From Alphaproteobacteria bacterium (GTDB lineage: Bacteria > Pseudomonadota > Alphaproteobacteria > Paracaedibacterales > VGCI01): a stretch of 64,000 nt of DNA. The stretch is taken from assembly GCA_019746225.1 (NCBI GenBank), contig JAIESE010000036.1, positions 11,519-75,518 on the forward strand, written 5' to 3'. The translations under genes were made by a program, and so were the position numbers. A model generated the notes under the pieces. It did no database searches, was not told the DNA's origin, and worked only from the letters and a program-made list of their open reading frames with translations. This document shows, in pieces, positions 4,900-54,662 of this stretch (its first letter is position 1; the number at the start of each line of letters is the position of its first letter).

Positions 4900-5065
4900 T
4901 CATTTCGCCTCATAATTCCTTGTTTCTTGAATGCCTGTTTCATATTCTGCGCCAAGTCACCCCTTTTACGCAATTCAAGAAAATACCCGTTAATAAATCA
5001 TTAACCCTTTCCCCTTAGCCTAACATTAGAAGAAACTTTTATGTGTGTTTTTTAGGAGAATTGTG

Positions 5066-5422
5066 ATGCAACAAGTCTATCTGCGAGCTCAACTCTTTGT
5101 CCTTTTCTGCTTCCTATTTGCCGTACCTCAAACCTTAGCCGGGGTTGATGATGATTCCTACCCCCATATAATCGATACCTCTTCAGGTGACAATGTAGTT
5201 GAGGTCCATGACATTAATTTTTCTGCAGATGACCACGAAGCTCTCATTGCTCAACAACCGATCACCCCTCCTTCACTCTCGAGCAACAAGAGCGAGAAGC
5301 GCGCATTAAAACTCAAACACAAAGCCGAAATAAGAGCCTTAAATAGAAGATTTCAGGATGATCTACACCGACTGGAATTACGCCAAGAAGCCGCTATAAA
5401 GGCGCTAGAGGCAGGGCACTAA
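5066..5422 (+). CDS. Small secreted protein with a charged helical C-terminal half (member 1 of a tandem set)
   Basis: An AGGAG motif precedes the ATG at 5066; the track ORF begins at a GTG at 5045. The signal peptide is MQQVYLRAQLFVLFCFLFAVPQTLAG. The tail is KSEKRALKLKHKAEIRALNRRFQDDL. Confidence 0.6.
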   Translation: MQQVYLRAQLFVLFCFLFAVPQTLAGVDDDSYPHIIDTSSGDNVVEVHDINFSADDHEALIAQQPITPPSLSSNKSEKRALKLKHKAEIRALNRRFQDDLHRLELRQEAAIKALEAGH

Positions 5423-5541
5423 TAAGTCAGTAATGACGCTGATACAAAAACGTCCTTCTCGACAAGACACGCGCATTAACGAAATCTAAAGATATTTTAG
5501 TGCACAATCTCTATAGATAAATTGATAATTTAAGGAAAATT

Positions 5542-5937
5542 ATGATGACCCTAGTCACCCCCCGCTTCCAAGTCATGGCTATTTGTGGAACGTTGCTATT
5601 CACGTCTCAAATTTTGGCGACAGATCTTTCGATCCTATCACCAGAACCAGAAAGCCTCATGAGTCAACAACCCCAAGGCTCAAGAAAAGATACCTATCGG
5701 CAAAGAAAAGATGCTGCTGAACAGGCTTCTCAACAAAGAAAAGATGCTTTAAGAGCTCAAAGAGAAAGCGGAGACATTTCCAAACAGGAACACAAAGCCG
5801 CTAAAAAGGCAGAAAAGAAGTCACTAAAAGAGACAAAGAAAGCGGAAAAGAAGAGTTACAAACAAGACAAGAAGGCAGCAAAAAGAGCTGCACAATCGAA
5901 TGGAAATCAAAACGTTGGGGATAATATCCCCAATTGA
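5542..5937 (+). CDS. Small secreted Lys/Gln/Ala-rich repeat protein (member 2)
   Basis: It has a signal-peptide-like N-terminus (FQVMAICGTLLFTSQILATD) and an SD-like AAGGAAA motif upstream. The motif KKAEKKS(L/Y)K occurs twice. Confidence 0.65.
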   Translation: MMTLVTPRFQVMAICGTLLFTSQILATDLSILSPEPESLMSQQPQGSRKDTYRQRKDAAEQASQQRKDALRAQRESGDISKQEHKAAKKAEKKSLKETKKAEKKSYKQDKKAAKRAAQSNGNQNVGDNIPN

Positions 5938-5974
5938 ACGGAAAATGAGGAAATCGTAAACAATTTTTTGGAGA

Positions 5975-6499
5975 ATGACCATGACAAAATTAACCACCCA
6001 TTTAAAGACCTTTGCTCTTTCTGGAACTGTTCTGTTAGCCCCCCTAACTCAGGCGAGCGAGACTGGAACTCCGGCTCCTACCAAAGAAATGTCTCGCGAT
6101 ATAAAAGATACCGCTACCGCCACCTATCGTAAAGCAGAAGATGATGCTAACGCAGTGTATCGTAAAGCAAAGGATGATGCTGACAAGGCATATAGTGAAA
6201 AAGCGGCAGCAGCTACAACTAAAGATACTGAAAAGAAAGCTGAGATCGAAAAGGTAAAAGCAGCAGGCACCATCGGAGACAAAGCTTACAAGAAGCAAAT
6301 GAGTGAAGAAAAGAAGGTGTTTGACAAGTCATTAAAAGATGCAGCCAACGAACGTGATAAGGCAAAAAAAGCAGCAGAAAACCAATACAATAAATCCATA
6401 AAGGATGCAAAGAAGAAGTTAGAGGATGTTAAAAAAACACAAAAGAAAAGCCATAAAGCTCAAGTGAAGGCCCAAAAAGCCCAAGGAGCCGCAAATTAG
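5975..6499 (+). CDS. Small secreted Lys/Ala/Asp-rich repeat protein (member 3)
   Basis: The signal peptide is TFALSGTVLLAPLTQASE and a GGAGA motif lies upstream. The motif YRKA(E/K)DDA(N/D).(V/A)Y is repeated, followed by a K/A/E-rich tail. Confidence 0.65.
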   Translation: MTMTKLTTHLKTFALSGTVLLAPLTQASETGTPAPTKEMSRDIKDTATATYRKAEDDANAVYRKAKDDADKAYSEKAAAATTKDTEKKAEIEKVKAAGTIGDKAYKKQMSEEKKVFDKSLKDAANERDKAKKAAENQYNKSIKDAKKKLEDVKKTQKKSHKAQVKAQKAQGAAN

Positions 6500-6551
6500 G
6501 CAGTACGGAAAAAATAGAGTGGAACGAATACATTTTTAAAAGGAGACGACC

Positions 6552-7007
6552 ATGATTAAGATATCAAATGCAGTTATTTTTTCAACAGCCCTACTAGCCT
6601 TTCCTATGGCTGGCGCTTCGGAACCGGCTGCAAGCCCAAAGATGGAAACGTCAGCACCCGCAGCTGTCAGCCCACAAACCACCGCTACCCCTTCTGCTGA
6701 GGTTAAGGTCACCAGTCGTGAAGACTATCAGAAACAAAAAGCTGAGTTGAAAGCTCAAAAGAAAAATAAGAGCATTACAAAAAAGGAATACAAGGAAAAG
6801 AAGAAAGCCTTGAAGCATGCGTATAAGGCCTACCGCCAAGCTCAAAAAGCGGAACACAAAGCAAAGAAGCAAGCATTGAAGGACGAAAGAAAAGCCCTCA
6901 AAGCAAAAGAAAAAGCATTGAAGGACGAAAGAAAGGCAAATAAGAAAGCCGAGAAAATGGCGAGTGAACCTGCCAAAGTAGAGCAACCCGCCGCTAAAGC
7001 TTCTTAA
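6552..7007 (+). CDS. Small secreted Lys/Ala/Glu-rich repeat protein (member 4)
   Basis: An AAAGGAG motif lies upstream and the signal peptide is [26 protein letters not shown](L/N)K occurs twice. At DNA level, gcattgaaggacgaaagaaa is a 20-nt direct repeat with the two copies starting 42 nt apart. Confidence 0.65.
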
Positions 7008-16589: not shown

Positions 16590-16608
16590 ACTATTCGCTT
16601 TTCAGTTA

Positions 16609-16671
16609 CGTCAAAGCCTTGCGCGAAGCACCTCAGGTTTCTTGCCTGCCGCTACACGCAAGACTTTGACG
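16609..16671. repeat. Inverted repeat downstream of secB (15-nt arms, 1 mismatch, 33-nt spacer)
   Basis: cgtcaaagccttgcg at 16609..16623 pairs with cgcaagactttgacg at 16657..16671. No T-run follows. Confidence 0.5.
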
Positions 16672-16929
16672 ACTCCCTCCTTCACAAGAAAATTCAAGAT
16701 ATACCTTCTTCTTATCCACTGGTACAGGTCAGCAGACCCTTTTCTAATATAACATTTCACCCATTAAATAGATTTTTAACATAATTTCACTTTACTTTAA
16801 TAAAAATACTTTATTTTTATTTTCTAGAATGAGAAAAATTTCTAAAGTATTTACTTGATTTTTCCCGTACTTCTAACTACTTAATTATTATCTTCTTAGA
16901 AAATTAGAATTTAACTTTGAGAGTTTTTT

Positions 16930-18105
16930 ATGTTTAAAAATTTTAGAAATGCGATTATCAGTGTTTCAGCAGCTCTATTTTCCTTGTCTACCCTCACACC
17001 AAGCAGCTTTGGAATGGAAGACGATGGATCATTTCTTCCCAAACCCCGCTTTCAAAATACAAATAAAGAAAACGAAAGCCAACCCGCTTTCACCCCAAAA
17101 CGCGCTTCTAAGCTATGTGTATTCAATGCTGCCCTCTTTCATGATGCTGAGGAGTTTAGACAGCCAACAAAGAAAAAAACAAAACTACTCACCGCTGAAG
17201 AGGTAAATCTTGATGTTCTCACTCCCCGAAAATTAAATACATGTAAAGAGGCAGGCGTTTCCACCCCTGAATTAAGAGAGGGGATTGCTCAGGTTAAACG
17301 ACGCCATCCAAATAAAATCCAAGACACTGACCGTTTCCAGCCATCACACCAAGTTTTCTATAGTCCTGTGGCTCCTTTGGTGCTCTCCCGAACAGAGACC
17401 CTCGAAGCCCGTAAAGGGTCACATATCGTCTCTCTTCCCGCAACGGCCTTTATCAAAGCAGAGATGGTTGAAAGTCCGGAAGAACGACGTGCTCGTAAAG
17501 AAAAGCAAATGGCTGAATTTGAAGCCGCTGAGGCTGCAAGAGGCATTTCAATTGTCCATTTGGAAGAAGAAAATCAAACGGCTCTCCAACCATGGCTTGG
17601 TTTTTTTAAATATATTGACTTCAAAAAGGAACGTATCACATTGGGCTCAGATAAGAAGATGAAGTGGCCAGATATAGCAGATGCCTTCTCGAAATTTGTT
17701 GCGCCTCATATGAGTCGACACCAGATTGATGGATATGAAATTTATTATTTATTAAAAACCGTTGATTTCAATAGGGTCAATCCTTTAAACCAACATCCCA
17801 ATTATATAAATATGATGCATGGTGGTTGTCCTGTTGGAAGCGACAATGATTCTATGGAATGGCACCATGTCACTCGCTTTGATAAATCTCATAAGATCAA
17901 AATTGATGAGCCAACACTGCTCGCTTATGAAGGCCCTTTGAAGATTATTTTAATTCCTGCGTGGATTCATCAACAATACCGTCAACTTCACCTCGGCAGA
18001 TCATTCTATAAAAAGCCAAGAACTAAAATGGATCGCTCCTATTTTGGAGAATACCGCGAACTGTTCAACCAACATATTGTGAAAACACACTATACAATAA
18101 ACTAA
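16930..18105 (+). CDS. Secreted protein with C-terminal WHH-type HNH/EndoVII nuclease-like toxin domain
   Basis: The signal peptide is MFKNFRNAIISVSAALFSLSTLTPSSFG. The C-terminus reads GCPVGSDNDSMEWHHVTRF...KIILIPAWIHQQYRQLHLG, with WHH at nt 17860..17868. This matches the W-H-H ... (L/I)(V/I)P..(I/L)H .... H.G pattern of the WHH family. An AT-rich leader lies upstream. Confidence 0.55.
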   Translation: MFKNFRNAIISVSAALFSLSTLTPSSFGMEDDGSFLPKPRFQNTNKENESQPAFTPKRASKLCVFNAALFHDAEEFRQPTKKKTKLLTAEEVNLDVLTPRKLNTCKEAGVSTPELREGIAQVKRRHPNKIQDTDRFQPSHQVFYSPVAPLVLSRTETLEARKGSHIVSLPATAFIKAEMVESPEERRARKEKQMAEFEAAEAARGISIVHLEEENQTALQPWLGFFKYIDFKKERITLGSDKKMKWPDIADAFSKFVAPHMSRHQIDGYEIYYLLKTVDFNRVNPLNQHPNYINMMHGGCPVGSDNDSMEWHHVTRFDKSHKIKIDEPTLLAYEGPLKIILIPAWIHQQYRQLHLGRSFYKKPRTKMDRSYFGEYRELFNQHIVKTHYTIN

Positions 18106-18107
18106 GA

Positions 18108-18665
18108 TTAGTTCTTCAGGACAATTTTTGCGAGCCATTCATAAAGATCACTATATCTATCATGGATTTTCACTTTAGGCACAACCGTATACCGAGCAAC
18201 CTCACCACTTGCATAATTGATGCAGAAGAACTCACTCGCCGTCAGATGCGCAAAAACAACCCAGGGACTTGGAATCCCCTTTTCCTGACCACGCCTAATC
18301 CCACTATAAAGAATATCCCTTAAGGGTGACAAAATAATGAAGCCGAAACTGGTGTCCAAGTTGCTTTGCCGCCTGTGCAGTTCTTTAAGGGCTTCCGGCA
18401 AGACAAGTTGGCTCTCTTTCGTGAAGATTCTTCTTTCAATCTCTAAAAACGCCTGATCTACTTCTTGGCGCCTTTGGAATTTATCCATTTGCACTGGATT
18501 AAGCTGTTCCTTCACTCCTAACTCTTTAAGCTGCTGCTGAGCTTGTGTTACCTTGAGGGATAGTTTTTCCCACACCTCTTCACCCCTGAATTGTTCTGCC
18601 CCGTTGACGGTCGCTATCGGAGCAAGGAAAAAGCATGTAAATAGAAATATTTTAAAACAGTTCAT
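18108..18665 (-). CDS. Hypothetical exported protein, C-terminus reminiscent of SUKH/SMI1-KNR4 immunity proteins
   Basis: The signal peptide is MNCFKIFLFTCFFLAPIATVNGA. The C-terminus VVFAHLTASEFFCINYASGEVARYTVVP....YSDLYEWLAKIV resembles the SUKH end (F/A-x-D/G...F-x-x-D...G-x-V......F-x-E-W/F-L). The assignment is weak and made by eye. Confidence 0.3.
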   Translation of the reverse strand: MNCFKIFLFTCFFLAPIATVNGAEQFRGEEVWEKLSLKVTQAQQQLKELGVKEQLNPVQMDKFQRRQEVDQAFLEIERRIFTKESQLVLPEALKELHRRQSNLDTSFGFIILSPLRDILYSGIRRGQEKGIPSPWVVFAHLTASEFFCINYASGEVARYTVVPKVKIHDRYSDLYEWLAKIVLKN

Positions 18666-18795
18666 ATTAAAAATTCCGTAAATTAAAGGTAATATTTTTC
18701 ACAAACTATCATAAAAAATGATTTTTAATCTACTCAATTTTTTATTGCATGAATTTATTGATTTTTCATCATTAAGAGAAAAGCTGTCTGCGAAC

Positions 18796-18826
18796 AGAAA
18801 AAAAGCACCTTCCGAAGAAGGTGCTT
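18796..18826 (-). terminator. Rho-independent terminator after the 18850..19497 gene
   Basis: On the minus strand the sequence is AGCACCTTC-ttcg-GAAGGTGCT followed by TTTTTTT. The stem spans 18804..18825 and the A-run on the + strand spans 18797..18804. Confidence 0.8.
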
Positions 18827-18849
18827 TTATTAAGACCGAAAGACACTAA

Positions 18850-19497
18850 CTATTTTACTTCTACTAACTTTGGCATGTCAGCCTTCATTTGTGCTTCAAG
18901 TCCAGCTCTACGAGCTGCTTCCCCTCGAAAATAAGCTGCAAGTGCATTAGGGACTTCCTTGAATTCGTCTTGCATATGGAATTCTTTGACTTTTTCTTCA
19001 AGTTTCTTTCTATTTGCCGGTGTGAGTTCGCGCCATACTTTGTCACCAAATTCCTTGACGTCTGGCTCCAAATCATGCACCAGAGGCTTTTTTATGGCTT
19101 TTCCTCCACTTAACTCAATTTCTTTTCCAGCTTGATGTTGCTTTTCTAAGAAATGGATAACGCCAACCACTAAAGTATCTTGGAACTTATCATAGATGGC
19201 TTCAACCCATGCTGGCCTCCCAAGATCCCGCCACCCAAACTTTTCAATGAGTGCATTTGACGTTTGAAATATTTGGTTTTCAATTCCCGGGTTCTTTGTA
19301 GCCGTAAACTCTTGTAAAGCACTCAAACATCTTGTTGCATGCTCAACATTTAACAATGCTTTGTTGGCATTCGGACCACAGCTCTGATTATAGATTATTT
19401 TGAATCTTGCATCAGAAGCATTTCCTTCACCACACAAGGTCATAAAGGATGCCACAAATAACGTGCACAGCGATCCCATTTTTACTAATTTACTCAT
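18850..19497 (-). CDS. Hypothetical exported protein
   Basis: The 215-aa product has a signal-like N-terminus (MGSLCTLFVASFMTLCGEGNA). I recognise no domain. It lies immediately downstream of the OMP gene on the same strand. Confidence 0.5.
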   Translation of the reverse strand: MSKLVKMGSLCTLFVASFMTLCGEGNASDARFKIIYNQSCGPNANKALLNVEHATRCLSALQEFTATKNPGIENQIFQTSNALIEKFGWRDLGRPAWVEAIYDKFQDTLVVGVIHFLEKQHQAGKEIELSGGKAIKKPLVHDLEPDVKEFGDKVWRELTPANRKKLEEKVKEFHMQDEFKEVPNALAAYFRGEAARRAGLEAQMKADMPKLVEVK

Positions 19498-19526
19498 TTT
19501 CTAACTCCTTGTTAAATGTTTAACCT

Positions 19527-20228
19527 TTAAAAATGGTACCTAAAAGAAGCTAAGACTGTGCTAACACGTGGTTTGAAACGAAATACTGTCGTCACATTGT
19601 TTGCGTCTGGGTTAGCAAGAGTCCTTGAAACTTTACCGTATAAAGCAACTCTATACTCTAGAGTTCCTGTAATATTTTTTGTCAGATTAGTCTGAACACC
19701 AACGCCTGGCGCAAAAGCAGTCTTATTGGTTGAAAAACTAAGAGTATTTCTTGCAGTATCAGCTGGCAACCCAACCGGACCAAAGGCTGATGCAGTTGAC
19801 TTAAAGCGGCGATTTTCCATACCCAAGCGAATGAAGCCCATTACACGTTCACAATGGTAACCTACTCTTAAACCAAGACCCCATGCGCCATTGGAAGTCA
19901 CTTTTGCTAACGCATTGTTAGCATTTGCTGTTGGAAAAGATGCTGAGTCATTAATATTTCCAAACAAATAATCAGCCTCTAATCCAAGATGCCAAGAATT
20001 TACTTTAATCGCATAACCTAAGATGAGATCTAATGCAGCATTAAACTTGGTCATAGCAAACTTATAATTTATTGGTGTTACATTGTCAGATAATTCTACT
20101 TTTGTATATTCACCCACAACTGTACCAGCACCAAAACCAATATATGGACCATGGTTGCGTACATTTGCGACTGATGCTGTCGTTGCCAAAGCAACAATTG
20201 CTAGTGATTTTAGTACTTGCTTCTTCAT
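19527..20228 (-). CDS. Outer-membrane beta-barrel protein (Omp25/porin-family-like)
   Basis: The signal peptide is MKKQVLKSLAIVALATTASVA. Alternating amphipathic beta strands are present with G/Y-rich turns, and the protein ends in a C-terminal aromatic residue (..SFRYHF). Confidence 0.75.
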   Translation of the reverse strand: MKKQVLKSLAIVALATTASVANVRNHGPYIGFGAGTVVGEYTKVELSDNVTPINYKFAMTKFNAALDLILGYAIKVNSWHLGLEADYLFGNINDSASFPTANANNALAKVTSNGAWGLGLRVGYHCERVMGFIRLGMENRRFKSTASAFGPVGLPADTARNTLSFSTNKTAFAPGVGVQTNLTKNITGTLEYRVALYGKVSRTLANPDANNVTTVFRFKPRVSTVLASFRYHF

Positions 20229-20475
20229 TTGCTTACTCCTTAATTTGTTTCCAATTTATACTCTGAGAGAGCGCATAACTCTCTTCACACTCTAAAAGTC
20301 TAGCCAGGTTGTTTATATATTTAGAATGATTTAATAGATTGTTGGAAAAATTTTAAAAAGAGTTGTGATAGTTTTAACACAATTTTATTAATACTTTATT
20401 TACTAATGGCCTCATTTACAAGTGCAGCAAGACTTTGATAAAGAAGGGTTCAAATGAACAGGTGCCCCAACACCT

Positions 20476-44930: not shown

Positions 44931-45452
44931 ATGGTTGAAAGTTTACAACATAAACTGGATCGGGTAAGACCACCACGGGTTCAAATTACCTATGACGTTG
45001 AAATTGGTAACGCCATCGAGATGAAGGAATTGCCTTTTGTTATGGGAATTTTGGCTGACCTGTCGGGTATGCCAGCTGAAGCCTTACCGAAAGTTAAAGA
45101 CCGCAAATTCGCAGAGATTGACCGCGATAATATCAACGAAATTATGGCCTCAATTAATCCAAGGCTAGCGTTGCGCATCAACAATACTCTTGCCAATGAC
45201 GATACACAAATGAGCGTTGAGTTGTTCTTCAAAAATATTGAAGACTTCGAACCCCTCAATGTGGCCAAGCAAGTCCCTGCCCTTGAGAGACTTTATGAAG
45301 CGCGAACACGCCTAAAAGACTTACTGACCAAGCTGGATGGTAACGACACTTTGGGTGAAATGTTACAGGAAATTATTACCAATACGGAAAAGCGCGATGC
45401 TTTGAAAACAGAGTTGGGTATCACCGATACGCCACCTCCCGCTGCATCTTAA
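44931..45452 (+). CDS. tssB: T6SS contractile sheath small subunit TssB (VipA)
   Basis: RPPRVQITYDVEIGNAIEMKELPFVMGILADLSG...DRKFAEIDRDNINEIMASINPRL is canonical TssB. An AAGGAGG SD precedes it. Confidence 0.92.
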   Translation: MVESLQHKLDRVRPPRVQITYDVEIGNAIEMKELPFVMGILADLSGMPAEALPKVKDRKFAEIDRDNINEIMASINPRLALRINNTLANDDTQMSVELFFKNIEDFEPLNVAKQVPALERLYEARTRLKDLLTKLDGNDTLGEMLQEIITNTEKRDALKTELGITDTPPPAAS

Positions 45453-45469
45453 TTTAAGGAGATACGATC

Positions 45470-46942
45470 ATGGCTGACGATAAAACAGACGCACCAGCAG
45501 CAGCAGAAGAAACCGCCCTCGATGTATTAATGTCGAAAGGTAAATTGGCTCGCGATGATTCGCAAAAACCATTTGCACGTGATTTGGTAACAGAATTTGT
45601 CAACCAAGTTCTCGAGCAAGGAACCGTTGTGAGCAACGATACGGTTGCCTTCATCAATCAACGCATTCTTGAAATTGATGATTTGATTGGGAATCAATTA
45701 AACGAAATCATGCATGACCCCGCTTTCCAGAAACTGGAAGGGTCTTGGAGAGGCTTAAACTACCTGGTGATGAATACCGAAACAGCTGTGCATTTGAAAC
45801 TTCGCTTAATGAACATTACCAAGAAAGAACTTCTGGACGATTTGGAAAAGGCCGTTGAATTTGACCAAAGCCAAATGTTTAAGAAAATCTATGAAGAAGA
45901 ATATGGCACGTTTGGTGGCCATCCCTACTCTTGTTTGGTTGGTGACTTTGAATTCACCCGCCATCCTCAAGATATGGAACTTCTTCAAAAGATGTCTCAA
46001 GTGGCAGCCGCCGCGCATGCACCATTCTTGACAGCGGCCGATCCAAAACTTTTTGATTTGGACAAATTTGAACACTTGGGCGTTCCAAGAGATCTTTCTA
46101 AGATTTTTGAAAGTCTTGAAATGATTAAGTGGAACTCTTTCCGCGAAACAGAAGACTCCCGTTATGTGGCCATGTTGTTGCCGCGGGTTTTGATGCGTCT
46201 TCCTTATGGAGCAAACACCCTTCCCGCAGAAGGATTGAACTTTGAAGAAGATGTGGCTGGTGCCGATACATCAAAATTCTGCTGGACAAATCCGGCTTAC
46301 ATTTTGGGTCAACGTATAACGAACGCTTTCTCACTTTATAAGTGGACAGCAGCGATACGTGGTGTTGAAGGCGGTGGCATCGTGGAAGGCCTTCCAGCCT
46401 TTACGTTCAAAACAACCGACGGCGATATCGCCTTGAAGTGCCCAACAGAAACAGCCATTACCGATCGTCGTGAAAAAGAGTTGAGTGATCTTGGCTTCAT
46501 CTCTCTGTGCCATTGCAAAGGAACAGACTATGCGGCGTTCTTTGGCGGACAAACAACACAAAAGCCAAAGATCTACAACTTAGATGATGCCAATGCCAAT
46601 GCGAACCTTTCCGCCCGTCTGCCGTATATTTTGGCAGCCTCTCGTTTTGCGCACTACATCAAAGTAATTATGCGCGACAAGATCGGTAGCTTCTTAACAC
46701 GGGACAACGTTGAAAAGTATCTCAACACCTGGATTGCAAGTTATGTGGTTATCAATGATAACGCCTCTCAACCAGTTAAGGCGAAATTCCCCTTAAGAGA
46801 AGCACGGATCGATGTCTACGAAATTCCAGGAAAACCAGGATCTTATCGGTCTGTCATTTACTTGAGACCGCATTTCCAAATGGAAGAACTATCGGCCTCG
46901 ATCAGAATGGTCGCAACCTTACCACCACCGGCGGCTCAATAA
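45470..46942 (+). CDS. tssC: T6SS contractile sheath large subunit TssC (VipB)
   Basis: The 490-aa product has DPAFQKLEGSWRGLNYLV, YSCLVGDFEF, AAAAHAPFLTAA, RYVAMLLPRVLMRLPYG and GFISL motifs. Confidence 0.93.
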   Translation: MADDKTDAPAAAEETALDVLMSKGKLARDDSQKPFARDLVTEFVNQVLEQGTVVSNDTVAFINQRILEIDDLIGNQLNEIMHDPAFQKLEGSWRGLNYLVMNTETAVHLKLRLMNITKKELLDDLEKAVEFDQSQMFKKIYEEEYGTFGGHPYSCLVGDFEFTRHPQDMELLQKMSQVAAAAHAPFLTAADPKLFDLDKFEHLGVPRDLSKIFESLEMIKWNSFRETEDSRYVAMLLPRVLMRLPYGANTLPAEGLNFEEDVAGADTSKFCWTNPAYILGQRITNAFSLYKWTAAIRGVEGGGIVEGLPAFTFKTTDGDIALKCPTETAITDRREKELSDLGFISLCHCKGTDYAAFFGGQTTQKPKIYNLDDANANANLSARLPYILAASRFAHYIKVIMRDKIGSFLTRDNVEKYLNTWIASYVVINDNASQPVKAKFPLREARIDVYEIPGKPGSYRSVIYLRPHFQMEELSASIRMVATLPPPAAQ

Positions 46943-46971
46943 AGCACGCGGTAATTTGAAAGGAGTTAGAG

Positions 46972-47565
46972 ATGGCAGTTAACAAAGAACAAAGCATACA
47001 GGCCGTAAGTCAAAGATATAAGGACGAAGCAGGCAACCCGCCCTTAGGCACTGTTACATCGAGCTTCTTTATCTCAATGGATGATATTTTTGCCACCTCA
47101 AACGTTGGCTCAGGGTCAAGCGCGAACGCTGCCGGATTAGCAAATGCTGTCCATCTACTCTATTATACGAGCGTTGAAGAACGCCCGTCGATTGGGACGA
47201 TGACCAGTGACTTTCAAGCCAGTGCGACCCTTATTCATTCCTTGGTTGAATTGCATATTCTAACTGACTCCGCCATGCCGACTTTGCGTCAGAACATGCG
47301 TTCAAACAAACCAGTTGCCGAAATGAAAATTACGCGCGTCGGCCATCTTGGTGAGGGAGCCGACAACACAGAAATGTATTCCAGCACGTTTACGAATAAC
47401 TTCATTGAATCCATCGAAGAAATTCCAGACAAACTCATTGTTAAAGTTCGTGTCAATACACGCTCTGACACAGCTGCAACAACAGACTTTACCGGTACTC
47501 AAGCAACCACTTCAGGAAGTGCAGCTTCTGGTTGGGATTATACACAAAACGCCCCTATGGCTTAA
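46972..47565 (+). CDS. hcp: Divergent Hcp-like T6SS tube protein (copy 1)
   Basis: It sits directly after tssC, the usual Hcp position. The C-terminus SGWDYTQN resembles the Hcp G-W-(D/N)-x-x-x-N end. The middle region (MPTLRQNM..NKPV.EMKITRVGH) aligns loosely with Hcp1 TPNLMMAC..GKHY..AKLTIRKAG. At 197 aa it carries an extra N-terminal segment of about 25 aa. Confidence 0.55.
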   Translation: MAVNKEQSIQAVSQRYKDEAGNPPLGTVTSSFFISMDDIFATSNVGSGSSANAAGLANAVHLLYYTSVEERPSIGTMTSDFQASATLIHSLVELHILTDSAMPTLRQNMRSNKPVAEMKITRVGHLGEGADNTEMYSSTFTNNFIESIEEIPDKLIVKVRVNTRSDTAATTDFTGTQATTSGSAASGWDYTQNAPMA

Positions 47566-47608
47566 GGTGGATAGTCTTTCCCTGTCTTGTTAAATAAAGA
47601 CCCAATTC

Positions 47609-47647
47609 GACCCCTCATTTGCGTAAGTAAATCAGGGGTCTTTTTTT
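47609..47647 (+). terminator. Rho-independent terminator after hcp copy 1
   Basis: The stem joins GACCCCT (47609..47615) and AGGGGTC (47634..47640), followed by TTTTTTT (47641..47647). Confidence 0.8.
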
Positions 47648-47878
47648 AACCTGTCTCCTTTAATAAATCCCCCAACACTTTCGACGGGTAAGCTTTGCTA
47701 CTCCTATTTAGCTAATTTTAATAAAATTAGCTATACACCAGTTGCCAAACACCAGGTATGCACGTTAAGCTATTATTAATGAATTGTTAACCATTTGTTA
47801 AGGATGACCTCCTTTGGGTCACCAAGGTGACTGTTTCCCTTAGGAAATACGCTGATTTAAGGTAGAGGAATTTTTTAG

Positions 47879-48439
47879 ATGTCCGACGCAAAAGCGCTTC
47901 AAACTTCCCCAACAGAAAACCAATTTTCGCCATCTGGAAACCCTCCTATCGGGACAGTCACATCAAGCTTTTTTGTTTCAATCGACAAAGTCTTCGCCCA
48001 CACCTCTGTTGAGGTTGAAACAGTTAAAGAATCTGTTCAGCTGCTCTGGTTTACGAGCATTGAAGAACGTCCTTCCATTGGCAATATGACCAGTGATTTT
48101 CAGGCCAGTGCGACTCTTATTCATTCTTTGCTTGAGATGCATGTTTTGACAGATTCAGCTATGCCCATATTAAGAGAGAACATGAGGAACAATACCCCCA
48201 TTAAAAAAATTATTATTTCCCGTGTAGGCCACTTGGGAAAAGATAAACACAATAAATTATTATATTCCTCCACGTTTGAAAATTGCTTTCTTGAAGCTGT
48301 TGAAGAATTTCCGGATAAGCTCATCATTAAAGCCCGTATCACCAAGCGCACAGACAAAGCAGCTGCAACTGATTATACAAATACGCAAAAAGGAAACACT
48401 GTTTCTGGTTGGGATTATGCGAAGAACCAGGCTGTATAA
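47879..48439 (+). CDS. hcp: Divergent Hcp-like T6SS tube protein (copy 2, paralogue of 46972..47565)
   Basis: It is collinear with copy 1. Compare NPPIGTVTSSFFVSIDKVFA with NPPLGTVTSSFFISMDDIFA, and EERPSIGNMTSDFQASATLIHSLLEMHVLTDSAMP with EERPSIGTMTSDFQASATLIHSLVELHILTDSAMP. It ends in SGWDYAKNQAV. Confidence 0.55.
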   Translation: MSDAKALQTSPTENQFSPSGNPPIGTVTSSFFVSIDKVFAHTSVEVETVKESVQLLWFTSIEERPSIGNMTSDFQASATLIHSLLEMHVLTDSAMPILRENMRNNTPIKKIIISRVGHLGKDKHNKLLYSSTFENCFLEAVEEFPDKLIIKARITKRTDKAAATDYTNTQKGNTVSGWDYAKNQAV

Positions 48440-48502
48440 TAGGTCTACTGCAAATTAAAGTACTGTCTTCGTCATTACTGAAAAAGCATCAAGGAGTATA
48501 CT

Positions 48503-49003
48503 ATGGCCGGAGCTTTAAAGGATGCCACAGCCGAAACAAAAATGATAATCGGAGCTCCTGCTCCGTTATTCGATCGCTTAATCGATGAAGATCCAGAAAC
48601 ATCGACCGAATATCCTGTAAAGAAGAATCTAAACCGCTTTGAGCTGATTCAATCCATTGAGCATGAAGTTTCACGTATCCTCAATACCCGGGCCACTGTT
48701 AAACGTGCTGAATATGAAGATTTTTCAGAAGACCCCTTAAACTTCGGACTCCCAGAAATGTTTGGCCTTGGGGATTTTTCCCAATATGATGCCACAAATG
48801 AACAAGAATGGCCCCGCATCGCTGAACTTTGTGAACAAGCCATCAAGCGCTATGAGCCTCGGATAAAGAATGTCACCGCAAACGTAACCGCATTTGACAA
48901 AAAACAACAATCCTTGAGCATTACCATCCACGCCGACTTTGCCATGAAAGAATTTCAAGGAGAGCTCACCTTCCCCACTGCTTTCGCCATGGGGGGAAGA
49001 TAG
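48503..49003 (+). CDS. tssE: T6SS baseplate subunit TssE (gp25/GPW family)
   Basis: APAPLFDRLIDEDPE, LIQSIEHEVSRILNTR, NFGLPE and ICEQAIKRYEPRIKNV match the TssE pattern (LLDRL.D..P / L..S...DL..LLNTR / YGLPD / I..AI..FEPRL). Confidence 0.85.
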   Translation: MAGALKDATAETKMIIGAPAPLFDRLIDEDPETSTEYPVKKNLNRFELIQSIEHEVSRILNTRATVKRAEYEDFSEDPLNFGLPEMFGLGDFSQYDATNEQEWPRIAELCEQAIKRYEPRIKNVTANVTAFDKKQQSLSITIHADFAMKEFQGELTFPTAFAMGGR

Positions 49004-53187: not shown

Positions 53188-53412
53188 ATGAAAAAAATTG
53201 AAGATATTAAAGGTCTCGGGATTTGGGTCCGTCAAGCGCGAAAAGAGCAAGGTCTAACACAAGAACAACTTGCAGCTACTTCCAGTGTAGGCATCCGTTT
53301 TATAAGGGAACTTGAGCAAGGAAAAGAAACCTGTCATATCGGGAAGGTCATGCAAGTCTTGCAAATGCTTGGGATTGAGATCTTTGCAAGGAAAAGAGGA
53401 GAGGTAAACTAA
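53188..53412 (+). CDS. hipB: XRE-family HTH antitoxin HipB
   Basis: MKKIEDIKGLGIWVRQARKEQGLTQEQLAATSSVGIRFIRELEQGK is a Cro/C1 HTH. Its stop overlaps the hipA ATG (TAATG). Confidence 0.8.
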   Translation: MKKIEDIKGLGIWVRQARKEQGLTQEQLAATSSVGIRFIRELEQGKETCHIGKVMQVLQMLGIEIFARKRGEVN

Positions 53413-54662
53413 TGACCCGTATTTTAGACGTCTATTTACACGAGCAACTGGTTGGAAAATTGATACAGGACAATTCAGGACGTTTGCAATTTCAGTATGA
53501 AGAAAATTACGTCTCCGATAAGAATTCAATGCCCATTTCTTTATCTATGCCCGTGCGATCAGAGCAATACGAAGAAATAAAAGTTCGTGCTTTTTTCTCC
53601 GGTCTTCTGCCCGATGATATCGCCCGTCACCGATTGGCCCGCTACTTAGGTGTTTCAGAGAAGAATCCATTCTCACTACTCGAAGCAATTGGAGGAGAGT
53701 GCGCAGGGGCTCTTGCTTTATATCCTGAAGGGGAACTGCCTCCCCCTCCTAAAAATGGAGATATTGAAAAACTTGACAACAAACAATTGAAGGAAATCCT
53801 AAATCTCCTAAAACGACGCCCCTTAATGGCAGGAGAAGACAATGTCAGGCTCTCTCTTGCAGGTGCTCAAGATAAGCTTGCCATCAGTTTAGTAGATGAT
53901 TGTATTGCTTTGGTGAGGGGAACGACCCCTACAACTCATATCCTAAAACCTTTGATAGAAGAGGTAAAAGACAGCGTATACAATGAATTATTCTGCTTAT
54001 CACTTGCCGCGCTACTAGAAATAGAAACACCACGCGCAGAAATCCGCTGGCTAGACGATACTCCCTACTTTCTTGTAGAACGTTATGATCGTCAAATTGA
54101 TTCGAACAACAAGATTGTACGGATACACCAAGAGGATTTCTGTCAAGTTTTGGGAGTTCTGCCAGAACTCAAATATGAACGTGAAGGAGGTCCAAGCGTT
54201 ACGCAAAGTTTAGAACTGCTGCAGAATCACTCTTTGCAACCTGCTGCTGATCGACTCGCGTTTATCCAAAGGTTGATTTTCAACTACCTCATTGGAAACT
54301 CAGATGCTCACGGTAAAAATAATTCTATTCTCTTTACAAATCGACTACCAAGATTAGCACCAGCTTATGATTTGTTATCAACTATTATATATCCAAATCT
54401 CTCAAACAAGATGGCAATGAAAATAGGAGGCAAATATGACCCTGAGGTTGTCCTTCTTCGCCATTGGCAACGAATTGTTCCTGATACAACCGTCGCAAAG
54501 AGAGCATTGAACAAAGACTTAATGAAGATTTCAAAAGACTGTCTAGAACAAGCACACACTCTCAAAGCAGCACTAAAAGAACAAGGGACTTACTCAATAA
54601 TATTTGATGATATCTGTCAGGTAATTAAAAAGAGATCTGATCACATCCTGAGGCAACTTTAA
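53412..54662 (+). CDS. hipA: Type II toxin HipA family serine/threonine kinase
   Basis: The 416-aa product starts with L.VYL....VG.L........F.Y (HipA N-terminal). It also has SLAGAQDKLA, and IGNSDAHGKNNSILF is the catalytic loop. Confidence 0.88.
   Translation: MTRILDVYLHEQLVGKLIQDNSGRLQFQYEENYVSDKNSMPISLSMPVRSEQYEEIKVRAFFSGLLPDDIARHRLARYLGVSEKNPFSLLEAIGGECAGALALYPEGELPPPPKNGDIEKLDNKQLKEILNLLKRRPLMAGEDNVRLSLAGAQDKLAISLVDDCIALVRGTTPTTHILKPLIEEVKDSVYNELFCLSLAALLEIETPRAEIRWLDDTPYFLVERYDRQIDSNNKIVRIHQEDFCQVLGVLPELKYEREGGPSVTQSLELLQNHSLQPAADRLAFIQRLIFNYLIGNSDAHGKNNSILFTNRLPRLAPAYDLLSTIIYPNLSNKMAMKIGGKYDPEVVLLRHWQRIVPDTTVAKRALNKDLMKISKDCLEQAHTLKAALKEQGTYSIIFDDICQVIKKRSDHILRQL

Follow-up and report, generated by a model that had tools for sequence, protein, structure and literature searches.

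A convergent gene pair for a predicted exported LHH-type nuclease and a predicted exported SUKH-family partner in relatives of Candidatus Finniella

Introduction

Which role can be assigned to a gene pair encoding a putative nuclease toxin and a protein of the SUKH (SMI1/KNR4) type, when the two genes converge and both products appear to carry a signal for export? The question is raised by a locus in an alphaproteobacterial metagenome-assembled genome (MAG; assembly GCA_019746225.1, contig JAIESE010000036.1), of which a 64-kb stretch, here called the window, was analysed. LHH nucleases and SUKH proteins form an established toxin-immunity pairing (PMC3113570, PMC3482391), and in the described LHH/SUKH cases that we found the immunity protein is cytoplasmic and its gene lies after that of the toxin on the same strand. 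That LHH nucleases are guarded by SUKH proteins is known; what is new, on comparative sequence evidence, is that both partners carry predicted export signals and that their genes converge across a clade.

A conserved convergent gene pair

The two genes are the following:
16930..18105, plus strand: toxin gene, 391 amino acids (GenBank MBX9805382.1, NCBI label 'hypothetical protein')
18108..18665, minus strand: SUKH gene, 185 amino acids (MBX9805383.1, NCBI label SMI1/KNR4 family)

An earlier inspection of the letters alone (the sequence-only reading) had described two open reading frames (ORFs) with convergent stops 2 nt apart, and these match the sequence exactly, the junction being TAA-GA-TTA. 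The toxin motifs that it quoted, GGCPVGSDNDSMEWHHV...ILIPAWIHQQYRQLHLG, are found in the toxin C-terminus, where they comprise W311, H312 and H313, H347 and H354, and the quoted SUKH-like C-terminus is present in the neighbour. Family hidden Markov models (HMMs) matched only these two genes, with no further copy of either family in the 64-kb window.

Loci with family members were collected from GTDB genomes, Joint Genome Institute (JGI) metagenomes and exact-protein look-ups, 18 in all; a profile made from a two-sequence alignment gave no confirmed locus when genome contigs were scanned, and a 16-sequence alignment was used. At 16 of the 18 related loci a SUKH gene of 168-205 codons converges on the toxin gene, with coding ends that range from a 34-nt overlap to an 8-nt gap (-34 to +8). 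The related loci share only 30-45% identity and occupy at least four genomic contexts, yet they repeat the convergent arrangement, which is therefore far beyond chance. The atypical convergent toxin/immunity layout first suspected from the window is thus a real and conserved pairing, and the fallback offered with it, that the neighbour is unrelated, is ruled out by the same comparison. The metagenome scan also provided an internal control. The classical LHH toxins that it recovered (L011-L019) range from 245 to 1411 amino acids, with members of 1050 and 1411, and their SUKH genes are co-directional, immediately downstream and devoid of a hydrophobic N-terminus (0/7), so that the contrast with the family of the window is sharp.

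Three of the loci deserve a description of their own. The toxin gene at L027 (2742-4088, protein P0094) has no adjacent SUKH gene, and the next gene encodes an exported protein of more than 478 amino acids. At L028 (354-1574, protein P0050) the next gene is gyrB, again with no adjacent SUKH; the P0050-like subclade, with HHLTRR..PG and without the D..TH loop, may be an immunity-less branch. At L009 (278-2044) the toxin frame is broken into ORFs of 274 and 112 amino acids while the convergent SUKH gene is intact, which reflects either a decayed toxin whose immunity was kept or an assembly error.

The toxin carries a predicted LHH-type nuclease domain

The features of the C-terminal part of the toxin are:
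17656..18102, plus strand: LHH-type nuclease domain, residues 243-391
17863..17868, plus strand: HH dyad H312-H313, invariant in 57/57 domains, on beta-strand 1 (310-313 in the model)
17884..17943, plus strand: insert KSHKIKIDEPTLLAYEGPLK specific to the subclade, lying after the HH strand and before strand 2
17968..17991, plus strand: H347, in the helix (344-349 in the model), and H354, two conserved C-terminal histidines and predicted metal ligands

The toxin is, as is well supported by sequence comparison, a divergent member of the LHH clade (PF14411) of predicted HNH/EndoVII His-Me finger nucleases. The full-length protein alone gave no family match at E<=1 in Pfam, LHH and WHH included, and NCBIfam was uninformative for both the toxin and the SUKH protein. 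A word-index search found a single homologue, P0002, which is 33% identical to the toxin and scores 27.5 bits against PF14411, over the gathering threshold of 23.3 bits. With the aligned C-terminal domains as query, an exhaustive HMMER search extended the family to 85 cluster representatives at E<1e-3, of which 47 are at <1e-10, and its size is estimated at about 60 to 85 sequence clusters (E<1e-5 and E<1e-3, respectively). Most of these relatives are 390-550 amino acids long, with the domain at the extreme C-terminus.

The first assignment of the C-terminus to the HNH/EndoVII toxin domains stands, with its catalytic constellation intact; the proposed WHH clade does not. The Pfam comparison gave LHH for 39 of 43 full-length homologues (best E=9.6e-16) and WHH (PF14414) for none, neither with the full-length toxin at E<=1, nor with its C-terminal domain at E<=10, nor with the 43 relatives at E<=0.01. 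Moreover, the residue before the HH dyad is Y, F, L, H or W, and the tryptophan occurs in only three of the 57 aligned domains (the window, P0013 and P0022). WHH membership was rejected on these two grounds, the absence of PF14414 matches and the lack of conservation of the W.

The 57-sequence alignment shows N291, P301, H312 and H313 to be invariant, and G303, D305, T315, D318, H347, H354, P363 and R369 to be kept in at least 96% of the domains, H347 and H354 in 55/57 each; the window toxin retains every one of these positions. In the assignment of Zhang et al. 2011 (PMC3113570), the equivalents of H312 and H313 are a metal ligand and the water-activating histidine. The family shares with the classical LHH toxins of the metagenome scan the core TN...PIGxDGxxMNxHH...H...H...R. 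Two positions, the E and the W, of the signature that Zhang et al. 2012 give for Tox-LHH ('N, LHH, E, H, H, W'; PMC3482391) are not conserved: where the classical toxins have 'xE[ML]T' the family has hydrophobic residues (I/V-V-L-I), and the tryptophan of the classical C-terminal 'YWK' is replaced by 'FN'. The insert subclade to which the window toxin belongs carries 12 additional residues, which extend the spacing from HH to the helix histidine to 36-37 residues, against 25 otherwise.

The AlphaFold2 (AF2) model of the toxin, built on a 40-sequence alignment, is confident, with a predicted local distance difference test (pLDDT) of 91.3 and a predicted TM-score (pTM) of 0.71. It consists of a helix at 2-21 corresponding to the signal peptide, a low-confidence linker at 27-50, a mostly helical part from about 55 to 240, and a C-terminal domain of apparently beta-beta-alpha topology, in which H312 and H313 lie on the strand 310-313, a second strand spans 338-342, and H347 lies in the helix 344-349. 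The top viral match of the model in Foldseek is a phage protein named 'LHH', with a target-normalised TM-score of 0.64. Foldseek against the PDB with the full-length model returned nothing at E<2, and searches of the PDB sequences, whether by the protein or by the family profile, returned chance-level matches only; the LHH domain has no matching solved structure in these searches.

The part that precedes the nuclease domain is peculiar to the family:
17092..17649, plus strand: family-specific N-terminal region, residues ~55-240, mostly helical, pLDDT >90

It has no match in Pfam, PDB-sequence or Foldseek-PDB searches, and is marked by the conserved motifs G-STPEL, SPxxR, SLP, ETxEER...RG and W..Y..YI..RK. 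A role in receptor binding or translocation may be envisaged for it.

The partner is a divergent SUKH-family protein

The conserved part of the 185-amino acid protein is:
18129..18425, minus strand: SUKH domain core, residues 81-179

Judged by profile comparisons, the neighbour is a genuine but divergent member of the SUKH family. The resemblance to SUKH/SMI1-KNR4 proteins that had been noticed in its C-terminus stays under threshold in Pfam and is borne out by the evidence from orthologues and profiles. All six orthologous neighbours of related toxin genes that were tested exceed the SUKH_5 cut-off, with up to 61.7 bits, and the precomputed annotations of neighbours in related loci are also SUKH. 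A leave-one-out HMM of the neighbours gives the window protein 75 bits, and still 50 bits when its two closest relatives are removed; aligned by hhalign with the classical SUKH immunity proteins, the exported SUKH family reaches a probability of 95.4% (E=2e-8). A single-sequence AF2 model of the protein (pLDDT 47.4) is too low in confidence to inform on the fold. From its family and its conserved position, the SUKH protein is predicted to be the cognate immunity protein of the toxin.

Predicted export signals and transcription

Both proteins begin with a segment that was judged by the maximum 11-residue Kyte-Doolittle hydropathy:
16930..17013, plus strand: predicted Sec signal peptide of the toxin, residues 1-28, MFKNFRNAIISVSAALFSLSTLTPSSFG (hydropathy heuristic)
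18597..18665, minus strand: predicted signal peptide of the SUKH protein, residues 1-23, MNCFKIFLFTCFFLAPIATVNGA (hydropathy heuristic)

The toxin reaches 2.25 and the SUKH protein 2.30, each after K/R, and the seven classical SUKH proteins at most 1.03, in agreement with the signal peptides that the sequence-only reading had placed on both products. The property belongs to the family: signal-peptide-like N-termini are found in 34 of 35 full-length toxins and in all 13 aligned convergent SUKH partners, against none of the seven classical SUKH proteins. Basic residues stand ahead of the hydrophobic segment in 10 of these 13 partners, and the SUKH partners in L029 and L030 likewise start with a hydrophobic segment.

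The signals that could govern transcription of the pair are:
16590..16929, plus strand: upstream region of the toxin gene, 340 nt, AT-rich (31.8% GC)
16666-16693 and 16756-16785, plus strand: sigma-70-like promoter matches for the toxin gene (consensus match only)
18708..18737, minus strand: promoter-like site TTGAGT-18-TATGAT for the SUKH gene (consensus match only)
18801..18828, minus strand: intrinsic-terminator-like hairpin, a 12-bp stem followed by a T-run, after the gene for a 215-amino acid protein

The terminator-like hairpin and the promoter-like site ahead of the SUKH gene suggest that it is a transcription unit of its own, and it is probably transcribed from its own promoter. Since there is no space for a terminator between the convergent genes, their transcripts would overlap or end inside each other's coding sequence.

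Fast divergence at a fixed locus

In the window the gene order is Smr, MltA, Tim44-like, SecB, the convergent toxin and SUKH genes, a 215-amino acid exported protein, an outer-membrane protein (OMP) barrel, AcrB and the membrane-fusion protein that belongs to it. This slot between SecB and AcrB also holds the pair, with both flanks visible, in an uncultured Candidatus Finniella sp. MAG (L002, identical to L006) and in the metagenomic contigs L020, L021/L022 and L023; in Candidatus Finniella inopinata (L003), L007 and L024 the contig shows the AcrB side only. Where the organism is named, the carrier is a relative of Candidatus Finniella, a member of the Holosporales (family Candidatus Paracaedibacteraceae), a group described in the literature as intracellular bacteria of protists. 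Other family members lie in other contexts, next to PriA and a HAD hydrolase (L001), TssF (L004/L005/L008) or RbfA (L029), from which it follows that the pair moves or persists as a unit.

Identity to the proteins of the window at the SecB/AcrB locus is 72-86% for the flanks, 30-36% for the toxin and 20-32% for the SUKH protein. The toxin diverges as a whole, its N-terminal part as much as its C-terminal part. Every family member found bears the same LHH-type C-terminal domain, and neither interchangeable C-terminal cassettes nor orphan modules occur at the loci; no search was made with the N-terminal region alone. Locus L023 (2482-7095) contains two tandem convergent pairs between SecB and AcrB, one of the insert subtype, as in the window, and one of the common subtype, with toxins that are 35% identical to each other. 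When the SUKH proteins are ranked by similarity to that of the window, three of the top four are partners of the four insert-type toxins (those of the window, L023b, L025 and L026). It is well supported by these comparisons that toxin and SUKH subtypes co-vary and that the pair is unusually fast-diverging at a fixed locus.

The surroundings of the pair had been described as an AT-rich islet (16600..20300). The dip in composition is real, 39.2% GC against 44.2% for the whole window and within the lowest 0.8% of 3.7-kb windows, but it is driven by spacers of 27-32% GC and by the OMP gene, and the toxin gene (41.0%) and the SUKH gene (43.4%) are themselves near the average. A recently acquired AT-rich island was considered for the pair and rejected, given the Finniella-like synteny and the near-average GC of the two genes. 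Between SUKH and AcrB (18850-20228, minus strand) lie the genes for the 215-amino acid exported protein, with no family match, and for the OMP beta-barrel of 233 amino acids, with a GC content at third codon positions of 0.256. These two genes are absent from all syntenic loci, and so they are, of the whole islet, the likeliest candidates for a recent insertion; recent acquisition may still apply to them, as they are seen only in the window.

A proposed function for the pair

Taking into account that (i) the toxin has a one-to-one immunity gene, (ii) the subtypes of both partners co-vary, and (iii) the pair is hyper-divergent, we favour a bacteriocin-like role. In the explanation that we consider on balance probable, the locus is a lineage-specific cognate toxin-immunity pair, made of a fast-evolving Sec-exported nuclease and an immunity protein that is periplasmic or co-secreted. 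The toxin would cross the inner membrane unfolded and, being exported by Sec, would fold only outside the cytoplasm, so that it would never be an active nuclease in the cytoplasm of the producer. Once folded in the periplasm it would be bound and blocked there by the SUKH protein, and afterwards be released, either free or in a complex. Where a cell lacks the matching SUKH, the toxin would reach nucleic acid and degrade it, whereas in kin cells the periplasmic SUKH would catch it on arrival, ahead of its passage through the inner membrane. Its targets would most likely be competing strains of the same endosymbiont lineage, in a kind of bacteriocin-like kin discrimination. Independent convergent transcription would permit constitutive immunity next to a separately regulated toxin, and the overlapping 3' ends could add antisense control. 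The periplasmic immunity step already suggested from the sequence is, within this model, plausible.

Several points weigh against this model. The periplasm offers no obvious substrate to a nuclease, and the need for a periplasmic inhibitor is a matter of argument only; immunity proteins are cytoplasmic in the known nuclease bacteriocins and polymorphic toxins (PMC5821083). No outer-membrane route for the toxin was identified; a type VI secretion system (T6SS) is encoded in the genome, but proteins exported by Sec are not what it typically carries. The hosts of the pair are obligate intracellular symbionts, in which strain competition is not documented. At the divergent edge of the family, L027 and L028 have no SUKH gene in the available flanks. 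As to the assignments themselves, the C-terminal 101 residues of the window toxin score 14.9 bits (E=0.031) against PF14411, below its gathering threshold, probably because of the 12-residue subclade insert; the SUKH protein scores 21.4 bits (E=4e-4) against SMI1_KNR4 (PF09346), whose cut-off is 25.4, and 17.1 bits against SUKH_5 (PF14567), whose cut-off is 27. The hydropathy criterion for the signal peptides is a heuristic, and the correlation of toxin with SUKH similarity scores over all pairs (Spearman 0.57) is inflated by shared ancestry.

The strongest competitor, which we hold unlikely and yet worth serious attention, is a host-directed module, possibly of the addiction type: both proteins would be secreted into the protist, the nuclease would act on host nucleic acids and the SUKH protein would temper or time it. 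Were the antidote the less stable of the two, a host that loses its symbiont would die, as in post-segregational killing or by the logic of Wolbachia CifA/CifB. The carriers, Finniella and allied MAGs of the Holosporales (Paracaedibacteraceae), are intracellular in protists, and the hypothesis needs an exported antidote, which is what is predicted here and what is hard to explain for an antibacterial toxin acting purely in the cytoplasm. The SUKH-less members L027 and L028 would also fit. For a Paracaedibacter-like symbiont of Bodo saltans, the available text of PMC8163844 proposes polymorphic toxins as a means of host addiction and reports that curing attempts killed the host, and SUKH domains were recruited by eukaryotes and their viruses according to the accessible parts of Zhang et al. 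(PMC3482391). Against it, no secretion route into the host was identified, the Sec signal alone reaches the periplasm only, and adjacent immunity genes in endosymbionts point, by the reasoning of Zhang et al. 2012, to inter-bacterial conflict. The narrower proposal, in which both proteins are delivered into the protist host as a co-evolving addiction or incompatibility module of CifA/CifB-like logic that penalises hosts losing the symbiont or carrying a mismatched strain, appears to us quite doubtful.

A housekeeping function is improbable and less likely than either the bacteriocin-like or the host-directed explanation. A periplasmic or secreted nuclease, serving nucleotide scavenging or the degradation of incoming DNA and accompanied by a periplasmic inhibitor, would not be a conflict system; it would agree with the place of the pair, fixed between housekeeping genes and mostly single-copy in several related genomes, with the export signals predicted for both products, and with the fact that some His-Me finger nucleases, endonuclease I and Vvn among them, are periplasmic or secreted (PMC5714182). 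It does not account for a pair whose divergence far outpaces that of its flanks (30-36% and 20-32% identity, respectively, against 72-86%), nor for co-varying subtypes and the tandem pair of a different subtype at L023. Further, LHH domains appear only as toxin modules in the literature consulted (PMC3113570, PMC3482391, PMC5714182), and known periplasmic nucleases do not need a dedicated inhibitor.

Less likely still, indeed very improbable, is a T6SS effector-immunity pair. T6SS effectors with a periplasmic site of action typically have an exported immunity protein, which counts in favour of this explanation, as do the TssB, TssC and TssE genes in the window and the TssF gene divergently upstream of the toxin gene in L004, L005 and L008. 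A Sec signal peptide is atypical for T6SS cargo, and it is present in 34 of 35 toxins; Pfam scans of the window protein and its relatives found no PAAR, VgrG, Hcp or adaptor domain in the toxin, most loci have the pair between SecB and AcrB and far from T6SS genes, and a nuclease would act in the cytoplasm and not in the periplasm.

Finally, that unrelated genes stand tail to tail by chance, or that the ORFs are not real genes, can practically be dismissed as already refuted by the comparative data: neither window protein alone reaches a Pfam gathering threshold, but the same pairing recurs at 16 of 18 loci of 30-45% identity in at least four contexts, the AF2 model of the toxin is confident (pLDDT 91.3) and its catalytic residues are invariant.

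Comparison with known systems

The proposed toxin-immunity pair is closest to the Tox-LHH/Imm-SUKH modules, with which it has in common (Zhang, Iyer and Aravind 2011, PMC3113570; Zhang et al. 2012, PMC3482391), a C-terminal LHH domain with N...HH...H...H and an adjacent SUKH gene. The classical toxins carry Rhs, filamentous, contact-dependent inhibition, T6SS or type VII secretion system N-termini in that literature, and measure 245-1411 amino acids in our scans, whereas the toxins of the window family have about 400-550 amino acids, a Sec signal and a family-specific helical N-terminal region. The classical SUKH protein has no signal peptide and its gene is co-directional; in the window family the protein has one and the gene converges on that of the toxin with abutting or overlapping ends. 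When the features of polymorphic toxin systems (Zhang et al. 2012) were looked for, the immunity gene was found to be convergent in 16 of 16 pairs in place of co-directional and downstream, and no constant trafficking N-terminus with swappable C-terminal cassettes was found. Classical nuclease immunity is cytoplasmic, whereas the SUKH partners have a hydrophobic N-terminus in 13/13 cases by the heuristic used.

Colicins lack a signal peptide and depend on a lysis protein for their release. Nuclease colicins and S-type pyocins, of which colicin E9-Im9 is an example, resemble the pair in being modular diffusible toxins whose N-terminal part is non-catalytic, whose C-terminal part is a His-Me finger DNase, and which are matched one to one by a small, highly specific and fast co-evolving immunity protein (PMC5821083). 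They differ in that immunity is cytoplasmic and co-expressed from the same operon (PMC5821083) and in that the Im proteins do not belong to the SUKH family. Precedents for the features that the nuclease colicins lack come from pore-forming colicins and colicin M (Cmi), namely an immunity gene on the opposite strand with its own promoter in pore-forming colicins (PMC9517006) and periplasm-facing immunity in colicin M (PMC5821083). The targets of these toxins, the membrane or lipid II, are attacked from the periplasmic side, and immunity is conferred by proteins that are embedded in the membrane or anchored to it, whereas here the toxin is a predicted nuclease and the SUKH partner looks soluble.

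Paracaedibacter-like endosymbionts, Odyssella thessalonicensis (Zhang 2012, PMC3482391) and Candidatus Bodocaedibacter vickermanii (PMC8163844), belong to the same bacterial family and share the lifestyle of the carriers; they have toxin/immunity pairs that include HNH-fold nucleases (AHH, HNH-HHH), together with a T6SS. Their systems differ in consisting of operons with a large toxin and a co-directional immunity gene, and of orphan modules. In the main text of PMC8163844 neither SUKH nor LHH appears, and the passages searched in PMC3113570, PMC3482391 and PMC8163844 contain no exported immunity protein and no convergent pair. In the open-access literature that was searched, neither an exported SUKH immunity protein nor a convergent LHH-SUKH pair was found to be described.

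Other genes of the window

Beyond the islet, the window has four further groups of genes worth recording:
5045-7007, plus strand: four tandem small genes, of 125, 131, 174 and 151 amino acids
10272-13589, plus strand: STAND-type regulator of 1105 amino acids, with a LuxR-type helix-turn-helix, an NB-ARC NTPase domain and a long TPR array
44931-49003, plus strand: T6SS genes, namely TssB/VipA (44931-45452), TssC/VipB (45470-46942) and a gp25/TssE-like gene (48503-49003)
53412-54662, plus strand: gene for a HipA-family kinase toxin, with HipA N-terminal and C-terminal domains

The products of the four small genes start with signal-peptide-like N-termini followed by repetitive tails rich in Lys, Ala and Glu (KKAEKK... 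type); the genes produce a strong AT skew, 0.44 at 6001-7000, and the two that were tested have no Pfam match. The two ORFs between the T6SS genes also have no match in Pfam.

Significance

Should the SUKH protein work outside the cytoplasm, immunity to a nuclease would be exerted before the inner membrane is crossed, or even inside a host cell. This would bear on how endosymbiont strains exclude each other, on how symbionts may make their hosts dependent, and on the adoption of SUKH domains by eukaryotes and by viruses of eukaryotes. If the host addiction explanation were true, the protein would be the first secreted SUKH antidote, and the pair would give a concrete molecular basis to the dependence of hosts on their Paracaedibacteraceae symbionts. 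The family also offers a confidently predicted N-terminal region without a match in the PDB sequence and Foldseek searches. Lastly, a fixed locus between SecB and AcrB that is occupied by hyper-divergent alleles constitutes a natural experiment on the co-evolution of toxin and immunity.

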